This document shows, piece after piece, positions 29,117 to 35,069 of a DNA stretch of 64,000 bases. The stretch lies in NCBI GenBank assembly GCA_042408215.1, contig JAYFMW010000029.1, positions 32,001-96,000 of the forward strand, written 5' to 3'. A model generated the notes under the pieces. That model was not told where the DNA came from. It searched no databases and saw only the letters and a list, made by a program, of their open reading frames with translations. The stretch's first letter is position 1. Each line of letters begins with the position of its first letter. The DNA comes from Microcoleus sp. (lineage in GTDB: Bacteria > Cyanobacteriota > Cyanobacteriia > Cyanobacteriales > Microcoleaceae). Made by a program: the position numbers and the translations under genes.

Positions 29117-29188
29117 AGCGGGTGACGCGATTCGAACGCGCGACATTCACCTTGGCAAGGTGACGCTCTACCACTGAGCCACACCCGC
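29117..29188 (-). tRNA. tRNA-Gly(GCC)
   Basis: Cloverleaf GCGGGTG...TTGCCAA...GTTCGAATC. Confidence 0.95.
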
Positions 29189-29645: not shown

Positions 29646-29915
29646 GTGAACAAACCTGACAGTCAAGGTCGTACCGTTAGACGGTAGGCTTCTTATTTCC
29701 TTTTTTGCTCATGCTTTTTATAGTGAGGTAGTTCCACCCCCACTTACTAATATTATAGGACAGGAAGGCAAGATCATCCCGAAATACAATTGTCGGGAGC
29801 CGTACCTCCGACCGACGCTTCTGGACATCCCTGCGGTAATTTATTCGGGGGTACTCCGTGCAAGCACTCCGATAAATCCCCCTCTAAATACACCGAGGGA
29901 CTTCCCGGCTGTTAG
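29646..29915 (-). mobile_element. Possible non-autonomous IS200/IS605 derivative (PATE-like)
   Basis: Subterminal hairpin at one end, AAGAAGCCTAC...TCAC right-end-like sequence at the other, no ORF. Confidence 0.4.
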
Positions 29916-30111
29916 TTAATCTGACTTACCACTGAAAATTGCCATAAATCCCTCGGATGAGTCCTAGGAACGATCAAAGATTACTACCCGATCAACTACT
30001 TTTGTAGTGCATTTGTCAACAAGGCGCGCAGAGAGCCTAGTTTTGGATGCAAGGGTTAGCGCACAGTCAATGATTTGCTTATTTTTGCTAATGTATGCTA
30101 CTATTGGCTGC

Positions 30112-30687
30112 ATGGCATACGTCCCACTCAGAAAAGCAGTCGAATTTCTGGGATTGCATCCACATACCTTGAGAAAATATGCAGACGAAGGGAAAATCAA
30201 AAGCATCAAAAACGAAGCAGGGCAACGACTCTACGATGTCGAGTCTTACCAGCGCGGTGCAACTAGAGCTACCTTTGTTTGCTACTGTCGCGTCAGTTCT
30301 CCCAAGCAGCGAGACGACCTTGCTAGACAAGTTGACTTCATGCGACAGCAATACCCCGACGCCGAAATCACCCAAGATATCGGGTCGGGACTCAACTTTA
30401 AGCGAAAAGGATTGCAAGCCTTACTGGTCAGATTTATGCGCGGCGAACAGCTCACGATTGTTGTTGCCTGTCGCGACAGATTGTGCAGGTTCGGATTTGA
30501 ATTATTCGAGTTCATGGCCGGGCAGAACGGTGGACAAATCTTGGTTCTTGACCGAACTGTTCACTGCCCAGAAACCGAACTCACGAGCGATCTTCTTGCC
30601 ATCCTTCACGTCTTCGGTCGCAGAATGCACGGACTCAGAAGTTACAGCAAGAAGATCAAGGAAGATCCGGCTATTCCTAAATCCTGA
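30112..30687 (+). CDS. tnpA: IS607 serine recombinase (MerR-like HTH plus resolvase)
   Basis: LGLHPHTLRKY, YCRVSS, DIGSGLNFKRKG, DRLCRFGF. Confidence 0.95.
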   Translation: MAYVPLRKAVEFLGLHPHTLRKYADEGKIKSIKNEAGQRLYDVESYQRGATRATFVCYCRVSSPKQRDDLARQVDFMRQQYPDAEITQDIGSGLNFKRKGLQALLVRFMRGEQLTIVVACRDRLCRFGFELFEFMAGQNGGQILVLDRTVHCPETELTSDLLAILHVFGRRMHGLRSYSKKIKEDPAIPKS

Positions 30688-31771
30688 GCAAAAAGCGTTA
30701 ATTAAGCAGTGGTTTGGAGTGAGTCGTTTTGTTTACAACACAACGATCAAATATCTCCAAGAACCAGACACAAAAGCTAGCTGGATGACAATCAAAACTG
30801 GAATACTCAACAGCTTGCCAGAATGGGCAAAACCTGTACCTTTCCAAATCAAATCGATTGCCATTAAAGATGCTTGCTCAACTGTGAAAGCAGCTAAACA
30901 GGGCTTCAAAAAAGACAGCCAAATCCGTAAATGTAAATTTCGCAGCAGGAAAGACACCAAGCAGTCTATCTATGCGCCGAAGTCGGCTATAAAAGATTGT
31001 GGTGTCTACCATTCAATTTTGGGCAAGTGTCAGGTAACAGAATCTTTGCCTAGAAATTTCAGTGATGGTAGGTTGACTCTCGCTTATGGCAAGTATTACC
31101 TAGTTGTTTCTGAAGAAGTGCAACAAGTTAAGACTGATAAACAAGGTCGGCTGGTTGCCTTAGATCCCGGTGTCCGCACGTTCATGACATTTTTCTCTGA
31201 AGATTCTTACGGCTGGTTAGGAAAAGATTCTAATTTGCACATCCAGAAACTGTGTTTCCGGTTGGATAAACTGGTATCAAAATCTTCTAAAGCTCCTAGT
31301 CGGCAGAAAAGAAGATTCAAGAAAGCAGCCAGTCGGCTTCGTTGCAAAATAAAGAATTTGGTCAAAGAATTACATCACAAAACAGCTAAGTTTTTAGTTG
31401 ATAATTTTGATGTGATTCTGCTACCAACTTTTGAAAGCTCCCAAATGGTGTCTAAGTCGCGCCGTAAGTTGAGAAACAAAACGGTGCGACAAATGTTGAC
31501 ATTGAGTCATTACGAGTTTAAGACTTTCTTGAAGTGGAAAGCTTGGGAAAGTTCAAAACTCGTAATTGATTGCAACGAAGCTTACACTTCAAAAACAGTT
31601 TCATGGACTGGCGAAATTGTCCAAAAACTAGGTGGCGCTAGGACTATTAAGTCGGCAGCCACTGGATTCAAGATGGATCGGGATCTAAATGGTGCTCGTG
31701 GGATTTTCACGGGCGAGGCATTGGTTGACACGCCTTTGTTGAGAGATTCTCTTAACTTATACGTTTGTTAG
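30179..31771 (+). CDS. tnpB: IS607 TnpB, pro-Fanzor-like RNA-guided nuclease (start uncertain; overlaps tnpA)
   Basis: RFVYN helix, ALDPGVRTF, ILLPTFE, NEAYTSKT, DRDLNGARGI. Confidence 0.9.
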   Translation: MQTKGKSKASKTKQGNDSTMSSLTSAVQLELPLFATVASVLPSSETTLLDKLTSCDSNTPTPKSPKISGRDSTLSEKDCKPYWSDLCAANSSRLLLPVATDCAGSDLNYSSSWPGRTVDKSWFLTELFTAQKPNSRAIFLPSFTSSVAECTDSEVTARRSRKIRLFLNPEQKALIKQWFGVSRFVYNTTIKYLQEPDTKASWMTIKTGILNSLPEWAKPVPFQIKSIAIKDACSTVKAAKQGFKKDSQIRKCKFRSRKDTKQSIYAPKSAIKDCGVYHSILGKCQVTESLPRNFSDGRLTLAYGKYYLVVSEEVQQVKTDKQGRLVALDPGVRTFMTFFSEDSYGWLGKDSNLHIQKLCFRLDKLVSKSSKAPSRQKRRFKKAASRLRCKIKNLVKELHHKTAKFLVDNFDVILLPTFESSQMVSKSRRKLRNKTVRQMLTLSHYEFKTFLKWKAWESSKLVIDCNEAYTSKTVSWTGEIVQKLGGARTIKSAATGFKMDRDLNGARGIFTGEALVDTPLLRDSLNLYVC

Positions 31772-32373
31772 CGTTTGTTAGCAAAAAAGTGTCGGTTGTA
31801 TCTCAACAGAAATTTATGGCAAGCTTTCGGGACATCTTAAAATACTACAGTCGCTACTGGAAAACTTCAGTTTTCAGCATAGGCGCATCCAGCGTTTTGG
31901 GACTAGCTGATTTGCTTGCGCCCTAGGCGATCGGTCAAATATTAAACCTATTGTCGGGTCAAACTACAGATATTCTGTTACCCAAAAACTCATAGCAGCG
32001 ATCGCCTCTGTTACCCAGCAGCCCGCCAACAAAACAGGAGCGCTATCCATCTTGCTGGGCATAATTTTTCTGGTAACAGTAGCCAAAGCACCGATTCAAC
32101 CTTGGGTAGGAAATTGGTTTCACTGGGTGATACTTCGACGGAGTTGATCGGCTCGCCCTTCGGCGAAGCTGAGCGGGTAAACGCAGTCCTTGGGCTCAGC
32201 ACAAGTGCCCAATGCCCAATTCCCCATCCCTCCGCTTCGCTTCGCCCAATTCCCCATGCCAATTCCCCTATATCCACTACTTGACTTATGTATTCAATGC
32301 TTTTCATTAGACTTTCTGATGTATTGTTGCAAACAAAGAGTCTGGTGCTAAGATGTATAAATGTGATGGAAAT

Positions 32374-32455
32374 GGGTCGATGCCCGAGCGGTTAATGGGG
32401 GCGGACTGTAAATCCGCTGGCTACGCCTACGCTAGTTCAAATCTAGCTCGGCCCA
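32374..32455 (+). tRNA. tRNA-Tyr(GTA)
   Basis: Cloverleaf with CTGTAAA loop and long variable arm. Confidence 0.95.
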
Positions 32456-32529: not shown

Positions 32530-32601
32530 GCCCGTGTAACTCAGTGGTAGAGTACCTCCTTGGTAAGGAGGAAGTCACGAGTTCAAATCTCGTCACGGGC
32601 T
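32530..32601 (+). tRNA. tRNA-Thr(GGT)
   Basis: Cloverleaf with TTGGTAA loop. Confidence 0.95.
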
Positions 32602-33794: not shown

Positions 33795-33890
33795 CCCCGC
33801 CCCGCTTCCTTCCCGTCGCCAAGACACAAATGCTTGATTCGGAACCTGTCTGCGAGGATGAGGTATCCCACGGGAGTGATTAGGTTTGTT
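33795..33890 (-). ncRNA. ssrS: 6S RNA, 3' half
   Basis: GATACCTCATCCTCGCAGACAGGTTCC...TTGTGTCTTGGCGACGG resembles the 6S 3' strand and is complementary to 35107-35180. Confidence 0.7.
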
Positions 33891-35069
33891 ACCCCGCAAT
33901 AAATTGACGGGGCTTGAGCCGAGATCGAGCGCACCGAACAAAATACAATTGACCTTGTAGTTGACACGCTATCCCCGGACTTTCGGGCTGACTTACCGAC
34001 AACCCCAAAGCAGCAATATTCTTAGCCGCATTCACATCAGGATCATGTTCAAGCCCACAATGCCCACACTTAAATTGCTTCCCATTGCGATAACTCTTCC
34101 CCTGTTTGGGGTGAATGTGGCCGCAACGGGAACAGGTCTGACTGGTGTAGGCTGGTGGAACACACACAACGAGTACACCTGCAATCGCAGCCTTGTAGTG
34201 CACGAACATCCTCAGTTGGTAAAACGCCCAGTTATTGGTGCGTCTACCCTCAGTCTTGGTTCTCGGCCGGGCGTTGAGACTGTCACGAATTCCGCTCAAA
34301 TCTTCAAACGCAATGCTCTGTTTTGTTTCGTTCACCAGTTGTTTGCTGATGTTGTGATTCAGCCAATGCATGAAAGCGTTGTTCTCTGCCAGAGAGCCTT
34401 CTCAGAAGTCGCCGGGAATTCCGAGTGGGTTTACGTCGAACATTCCCTCTGACCTTGCTATAGCGGTCACGAGTGGCTTGAATCTTGTTGCCACTCCAAC
34501 TGTTTCCAGTGCTGGTAGTGGCGATGTCTCTAGGTCCCAAGTCCACACCGATTACTTTGGGTTTTTTGCCCGTTGGGTCGCTGGGAATGTCAACGCAGAT
34601 ATTGATGTAGCAGTCTCCTTTCTTGGTTTTCTTCAGGGTTGCAGCCGTGGGAGTTTGACCACGGAGCAAGGCAATCCGATCGCCGCCGATGGAGACTTTG
34701 AACTGTTTGCGTCCGAAGCCGGGGCGTCACCCCAAGGGTTTGCGTTTCCTCGAAGTAGCTGAAGGTGCGAAGGTCGAGGTCGATCGAGGTGGGGCGAAAC
34801 TTGTGGACTTGTTTAACCGCTTTTGCATTACCGATCGCGCGACGAATCCCTTGACAAACATGGTTCGCCTTCAATCCCGTTGCTGCTCTCACTGGCTTGT
34901 AGGTCAGGTGATGCAACTTGGTTGTGTTCCACTGTTTATTCGCTTTAGCCTCTTTTGCAACGTCAAGAATCTGATTGCAAGCGTCAGCAAACCGCTCAAG
35001 AGTCAAGTCAATATCTTGACACAACTCTTGAGGGACTATCAGCTTGCATTTAACAGATCTGGTCTGCAT
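33889..35069 (-). pseudogene. tnpB: IS200/IS605 TnpB with two +1 frameshifts (about 34722 and 34374); catalytic motifs intact
   Basis: GVDLG, AFEDL, YTSQTCSRC, CGHC, DVNAAKNI across three frames. Confidence 0.85.

Follow-up and report, generated by a model that had tools for sequence, protein, structure and literature searches.

A complete IS607-family element between tRNA genes

The window, by which we mean the whole 64,000-nucleotide stretch of Microcoleus sp. DNA that was analysed, contains a complete IS607-family element of 1.74 kb (30054..31795, +), which has GG at each end and lies in an intergenic region flanked by tRNA genes at 29117-29188 (-), 32374-32455 (+) and 32530-32600 (+). It carries an intact tnpA gene (30112..30687, +) and a tnpB gene of the pro-Fanzor type (30179..31771, +), the two overlapping by 509 bp in different reading frames. 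Its boundaries were established by computation from a second copy in the same genome, which is 90% identical and matches from 30054 to 31795, from the ends common to relatives, and from empty sites. All 14 related loci examined are empty at the orthologous site, read ...GC(A/G)AGGG followed by TTGTATCTCAAC and contain one GG core, while the window has GG at both 30054-55 and 31794-95, as IS607 crossover at a GG dinucleotide would leave it. The left ends of relatives begin with GG, preceded by A or G in 22 of 23 distinct flanks, and their right ends read TCGG in 76/80 cases, and three further ones have this end displaced by an indel. The initial annotation had already noted that the element appears complete, and was correct with regard to the right end at 31795, but the start at 30054 lies 58 bp to the left of the one it had proposed.

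An exact-pattern search for the empty site gave no match in 79 genomes, because the left flank in the window is without 10 bp found in relatives, and the site was then located by BLAST of the right flank. The missing 10 bp belong to a short direct repeat (window 30040-30055), and are present both in the empty-site relatives and in another instance of this insertion (L191; run X3). The many insertion sites in relatives, together with about seven short derivative copies, suggest that the element may be mobile. Scanning for promoters gave matches at chance level (3 vs 2.6 expected), and no terminator was found. The element sequence also occurs in 14 RNA runs as assembled contigs, which reveal neither transcription, strand nor ends.

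Two other features were seen nearby. A non-coding stretch of ~145 bp at 29776-29923 recurs at two further genomic positions (76-81% matches), shows loose ends in other assemblies, and is possibly a small repeat element. A canonical tnpB pseudogene at 33889-35069 (-) is split by frameshifting into three ORF pieces, two of which match guided_TnpB.

The transposase and nuclease genes

The tnpA product (191 aa) is a serine recombinase with an N-terminal MerR-type HTH (PF00239 and PF00376), and scores 155.5 bits against the IS607 transposase family NF033518 (cut-off 110). The tnpB frame is +1 relative to tnpA and is open from 30173 to 31771, with its first ATG at 30179, from which a protein of 530 aa would be made. 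It is open throughout 30179..30687 (+), which confirms the 509-bp overlap noticed initially, and the conserved part of the overlapping segment runs from P81 to F123 (PYW..C...S..L.LP...KSWF, 30419..30547, +).

The motifs reported in the initial annotation were all found to be as described. RuvC-I reads D329-P-G (31163..31171, +) when aligned with the mimivirus Fanzor2 structure 9B0L, with the D present in 143/144 and the P in 141/144 relatives. The canonical RuvC-II glutamate column, where ILLPTFE aligns to IAVEDL of 9yyg, is occupied by Pro416 (31424-31426, +) in all 144 relatives, and the relocated glutamate (Ealt) is E467 (31577..31579, +) within NEAYTSKT, which aligns to E467 of ApmFz2 from Acanthamoeba polyphaga mimivirus, is seven residues ahead of V474 and is invariant (144/144), as is the RuvC-III residue D502 (31682..31684, +; 144/144). 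The zinc-finger positions read VSWTG and SAATG (31598..31666, +), a remnant devoid of the cysteine pairs. We considered this loss as a sign of a pseudogene and rejected it, since CxxC is absent from 120/144 relatives while the triad is invariant. Just past RuvC-III, a gain of 3 nt at 31705-31725 gives GIFTGEAL in the window copy and the closest copy in the genome, as opposed to GIFLRAL in relatives, and falls within the predicted RNA region.

Pfam and NCBIfam detect TnpB at residues ~159-509 only, and NCBIfam has no family for the overprinted segment. The sole match of the TnpB sequence in a phmmer search of the PDB was 9B0L.

Predicted omegaRNA and target site

The right end (31640-31797) folds more stably than its shuffled counterparts (MFE z -2.99 vs 200 shuffles). 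Folding and 34 aligned right ends place the 3' part of a predicted omegaRNA scaffold at 31717..31795 (+), with predicted hairpins at 31738-31756 and 31764-31785 (+) and a predicted pseudoknot pairing GACAC (31727-31731) with GTGTC (31789-31793, +). In the 34 sequences 94% of cells are paired in the structure drawn from those same sequences, and a U-A/C-G double change in the pseudoknot is seen in 4/34, both counts being inflated by kinship. No Rfam family matches the right end. The right-end structure is conserved and covarying in relatives, and the pro-Fanzor is a candidate for RNA-guided DNA cleavage. The left flanks predict a TAM at the left junction (30053..30055, +), which is AAGGG here and purine-GG across relatives. 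With the IS607 omegaRNA boundary described in PMC10711439 and the empty-site loci as a guide, the predicted guide would be the right flank (31796..31815, +), which matches the empty site beside the TAM.

Coding in the second frame

The overlap had been proposed as possible dual coding, a claim open to refutation by frequent stops in homologous elements. We gathered 282 intact tnpA genes, which gave 113 non-redundant ones at 80% identity, and counted stops in the other frames under TnpA residues 95-180, with the protein fixed and synonymous codons redrawn. For the window the +1 frame was open in only 11 of 2000 redraws, with 3.6 stops expected. Over the non-redundant tnpA genes with a DPG TnpB downstream, the +1 frame was stop-free in 86/87 (0.8 expected), a figure biased towards open frames as most DPG loci had been ranked by similarity to the full-length protein, and in which kin are not independent; the +2 frame was open in 1/87. 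None of the six tnpA genes linked to a canonical TnpB had an open +1 frame. Among untyped tnpA genes it was open in 5/20 (L015, L126, L157, L187, L397), which on inspection were of the overlapped kind and were counted as such in the later codon, start and profile analyses. Loci found via TnpA alone gave the same division: overlap was seen in each of the 10 DPG loci where tnpA and tnpB are both intact, and the 17 canonical loci, some of which are copies of one element, have 1-21 aa ahead of the WED domain.

The choice of TnpA codons points in the same direction. Synonymous choices keep P81 in 82 of 92 elements (16 expected), P97 in 75 (17), S121 in 83 (24), W122 in 79 (33) and F123 in 79 (29), and W83 and L94 are likewise kept far over expectation. 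The control columns did not include L372, L394 or L451, and the z values are raised by relatedness, with a mean z of 2.6 already over TnpA codons 24-60.

Across 221 non-redundant loci, a frame broken on its own is mostly that of tnpA: stops are confined to it in 63 loci and to the tnpB frame in 4, while both frames are open in 143 and both are stopped in 11. In phage copies with a decayed or deleted tnpA, an extension of 80-90 residues with its own Met persists. In two sets of phage copies with decayed tnpA, of 10 and 4 loci, the segment has a dN/dS of 0.12 and 0.09, respectively, similar to the values of the nuclease core (0.08 and 0.10) and below those of the linker (0.47 and 0.34). This purifying selection on the peptide, where the other frame imposes no constraint, is the strongest evidence for dual coding.

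An alternative is that the open frame is a mere shadow of TnpA conservation and is untranslated, with TnpB starting after or near the end of tnpA. Some motifs are indeed forced by TnpA, such as HKDRL, which yields TKTD in canonical elements too, and databases call short forms: a 350-aa product (P0102) is 99% identical to residues 181-530, and the Nostoc PCC 7120 plasmid copy is annotated as a 392-aa CDS inside a 578-codon open frame. However, canonical tnpA genes have on average 7.7 stops in the same region of their +1 frames, the peptide remains under purifying selection where tnpA is dead, and the window TnpB has no in-frame ATG from M20 to M203, so that a start past tnpA would cut into the WED/HTH region (159-195), with a V181 start costing the first WED strand. 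We therefore consider this shadow explanation highly improbable, and the 509-bp overlap almost certainly represents real dual coding, the homologous frames being hardly ever interrupted. Selection acts on both frames, as is the case for overprinted genes, and the TnpA proteins which retain the dual coding are only 32-45% identical. Long same-strand dual coding across such divergent proteins is unusual in bacteria.

In two lineages (L025, L026 and L030, on G000 C5 and C26) an extra C in one C-run breaks and swaps both frames; this run encodes A-H in TnpA and Pro in the second frame, and L285 represents the intact form. The run is probably a slippage hot spot arising from the dual coding.

Translation start and annotation

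Up to TnpA codon 20 the +1 frame contains about as many stops as chance would give (37 vs 44 expected); they are depleted at codons 21-77, and from codon 78 on there is just one. The first ATG is at codons 23-26 in 45/92 elements, and an in-frame ATG at varying positions precedes P81 in 91/92 (85.6 by chance); in ten elements the frame opens only past codon 40, and each of these still has an ATG further on (7 expected). From these late-opening frames and the variable first ATG it follows that the leader is dispensable and the start not fixed, with 30179 being a plausible start in the window.

The variable start position would also fit a programmed frame change, by which ribosomes translating tnpA would enter the segment and make an HTH-TnpB fusion with no start of its own, and single-base indels at the C-run of L025, L026 and L030 do join the frames. 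Such a mechanism would require a +1 (or -2) shift, whereas the usual frameshift of IS elements is -1. The depletion of stops from about codon 21, with about half of the first ATGs close by, argues against it, as do the tnpA-less copies, in which a separate Met lies some 10-15 residues ahead of PYW. We consider a frame change quite improbable, and infer that the segment is translated from an ATG of its own. Annotation treats the two frames inconsistently: in contrast to the shortened Nostoc call, a Microcoleus phage record annotates the long TnpB and omits tnpA.

The overlapping segment and the Fanzor2 N-terminus

The initial annotation had noted a likeness of the overlapping stretch to the N-terminus of Fanzor2. 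This was supported for the RuvC-R part by profiles and predicted fold, while the basic thumb is not clearly shared. A profile of the 144 relatives aligns with 9B0L from residue 78, placing KSWF (30536-30547, +) on NSWY 82-85; with a profile of 21 free-standing Fanzor2-like proteins the match reaches residue 56, and the giant-virus protein L372 matches residues 57-509 directly. HHalign of the overlap profile with the N-termini of 100 L372 homologues gave a score of 24.0 (E 7.8e-5, probability 61%), the best of 40 column shuffles reaching 12.4. The overlap profile also matches 80/120 homologues of another giant-virus protein, and [ST]W[FY] is found in 87/100 N-termini of the L372 homologues. In addition, the supplement to PMC10711439 lists the fungal proteins XP_003683194.1 and CAG8464553.1, in which a PFW...SWFS pattern can be read off the unaligned listing.

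A template-free AF2 model of residues 69-530 had a mean pLDDT of 80 (45-76 by block over 79-158), an earlier model built from 12 sequences being poor (pLDDT 64). Residues 11-451 of the model superpose on chain residues 53-518 of 9B0L (Z 26.9, rmsd 4.2, 416 aligned), whereas with TnpBs the alignment begins only at 87-89 and covers 321-344 residues; the VIA Z for 9B0L equals that of ISDra2 (26.4). In Foldseek the best match was ApmFz2, and the top viral matches were giant-virus transposases. Most of the basic thumb of ApmFz2 (109-130) is aligned as part of an insertion of 12 residues with respect to the profile, and the matching part of the model has a pLDDT of 45-56.

It is conceivable that the dual coding is real and the segment nevertheless not homologous to the Fanzor2 N-terminal domain (NTD), or that a giant-virus or eukaryotic Fanzor2 passed to bacteria. 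Pairwise comparison favours the former, as phmmer left the N-terminal 150 residues unmatched to 9B0L and the similarity to ApmFz2 1-130 was not significant, and the HHalign probability reaches only 61%. As for the latter, an AU test gave p 0.73 for head-to-head Fanzor2s as the basal branch, with the constrained tree scoring higher, and p 0.30 for the window as basal, so that either root inside the clade is compatible with the data, and the supplementary text of PMC10711439 leaves the direction undecided too. Yet the segment occupies the same place ahead of WED with the same W-x-P...SW[FY] order, and there are a chain of intermediates and a structural superposition, such that we regard both versions together as unlikely. 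Segment 81-123 is very probably homologous to the N-terminal RuvC-R of Fanzor2, and its birth by overprinting would be unaffected by the direction of transfer, TnpA having a much wider distribution than the segment.

Classification and distribution

According to PMC10711439, pro-Fanzors combine DPG and Ealt with an IS607 TnpA, and the window protein has LD329PG, no canonical Glu, and an Ealt located some six residues ahead of where the zinc finger would be, next to an IS607 TnpA; the initial description as a TnpB with a pro-Fanzor/Fanzor2-like active site is therefore upheld. In the tree, 40 DPG-lineage rows, including giant-virus loci, split from 6 canonical rows (SH-aLRT 100, FastTree 99), where the label 'GiantVirus' is assumed from contig size for L358, L367, L434 and L498, and the others have GVMAG in the contig name; the grouping with canonical TnpBs that could have overturned the assignment was thus not seen. 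Fanzor2 is encoded by eukaryotes or eukaryotic viruses, whereas the insertion site in the window is orthologous across a cyanobacterial genus, and the nearest named relatives are Microcoleus. Of the Fanzor2 domains, the protein has the RuvC-R part of the N-terminal domain but no CxxC for a C4 zinc finger. The element is an intact IS607 pro-Fanzor, a known group, and by definition no Fanzor2.

The lineage extends beyond cyanobacteria, with members in Vibrio phages (L519, OZ196874.1), large metagenomic phages (phage contigs in L155-L185), Caldilineaceae and Thiomargarita, and these non-cyanobacterial members often have a decayed tnpA. Genome G000 has overlapped elements in at least 13 places, with TnpA 42-96% identical to that of the window, as well as several canonical IS607 elements. 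It also contains seven copies of a ~330-bp non-coding element (C6:423249-423578, C6:743686-744014, C5:363571-363899, C5:370534-370860, C12:36441-36768, C30:227763-228087 and C20:249158-249485), which share 86-100% identity with the first copy and have IS607-like GG ends together with the right-end RNA part of the present family; this is a probable miniature derivative which could supply extra guides. In L194 the left end of an element directly follows right-end sequence, which suggests a tandem insertion or a circle junction.

Origin and history of the segment

In giant-virus MAGs, ten loci have a tnpA nested in the same +1 relation (L322, L326, L331, L368, L370, L396, L435, L493, L497 and L514). 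The segment is retained without tnpA in L335, L342, L386 and L460, and in L372, L394, L496 and L498 tnpA is head-to-head, its +1 frame having 18 stops in L372 and 8 in L394. In a quick tree the head-to-head forms are nested among overlapped ones, but a basal position for them was not rejected by the AU test. A recognisable tnpA fossil lies beneath the segment in 14/29 tnpA-poor loci.

The +1 frames of non-overlapped tnpA genes resemble the peptide: 20/21 were reported by the segment profile (median 6.9, max 41.4 bits), compared with 19/21 of the +2 frames at a median of -1.1 and a maximum of 2.9 bits. This likeness in canonical tnpA points to birth by overprinting, and since TnpA is widespread without the segment, which is absent from canonical IS607, we infer that the segment is the overprinted frame; narrower distribution together with likeness to an alternative frame of the older gene is the pattern of an overprinted gene.

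On balance we lean towards a history that begins in the founder of the whole DPG/Ealt lineage, where the +1 frame of tnpA would have given rise de novo to the Fanzor2 NTD and perhaps also to the lysine-rich leader from which its nuclear localisation signal developed. In this history the domain became essential for omegaRNA binding, spread in nested form through bacteria, phages and giant viruses and into eukaryotes, and was freed repeatedly. If an essential NTD did arise de novo in this way, most annotated pro-Fanzors are truncated and would fail in screens.

Proposed mechanism and significance

Our explanation as a whole, in which we have high confidence, is that the element is an intact IS607 member of the pro-Fanzor/Fanzor2 lineage with an overprinted, later freed segment. 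TnpA would excise and insert the element at GG cores, and TnpB would be translated in the +1 frame from an ATG within tnpA (30179 or 30236). Residues of about 1-75 would form the dispensable and probably disordered leader, and segment 81-123 would fold onto RuvC and, as in ApmFz2, help hold the omegaRNA pseudoknot, which in 9B0L is contacted by Asn82 and Ser83 (PMC11832414). TnpB with the right-end omegaRNA would cut empty sites by means of the purine-GG TAM and the right flank, the TAM of ApmFz2 being GGG (PMC11832414), and this cutting would favour retention of the element. The segment may have been overprinted on the older tnpA frame and freed later where tnpA decayed or moved.

The segment matches an extra domain thought unique to the Fanzor2 nucleases of eukaryotic viruses. 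A structurally solved domain would acquire a traceable origin, with part of a RuvC-associated fold derived from a second reading frame and with nested, decaying and freed forms as living intermediates. It also corrects the published view that pro-Fanzors differ from Fanzor2 by a missing N-terminus, and anyone mining for compact editors from the short ORFs as annotated would miss a segment that probably binds RNA. The dual coding is directly testable, since stops silent in TnpA fit into the second frame.

Comparison with known systems

The literature search, with subscription papers, ISfinder and most supplements outside its reach, found no account of the long overlap, so that the group is known but no printed description of the architecture was found. 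IS607 has been described with two overlapping ORFs, one amoebal copy having a 100-aa N-terminal insertion in ORFB (PMC3673617). With canonical IS607 elements the window element shares a serine recombinase and TnpB, GG ends and no need for inverted repeats, whereas in canonical elements the overlap is absent or only about 22 nt long, the motifs are DIG or DLG, and WED is preceded by just 1-21 residues.

The pro-Fanzors, or TnpB2 (PMC10711439), are similar in DPG, the Glu six residues ahead of the zinc-finger position, the IS607 TnpA, the GG crossover and the pseudoknotted right-end RNA, but the window copy is also without zinc-finger cysteines. They are said in PMC10711439 to be without the Fanzor2 N-terminus, although its tables list long forms which carry the segment.

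With ApmFz2 (PDB 9B0L; PMC11832414) the similarities are the triad, D329/E467/D502 corresponding to D324/E467/D501, the alignment of the N-terminal segment to NTD/RuvC-R including Asn82-Ser83, and the predicted G-rich TAM. The window protein differs in being bacterial, about 20% identical and without a C4 zinc finger or clear basic thumb, and its predicted omegaRNA is shorter. Finally, while the segment is inside tnpA in the window, the nearest ApmFz2-like loci compared here (L372, L394, L496 and L498) have their tnpA head-to-head with the nuclease gene.
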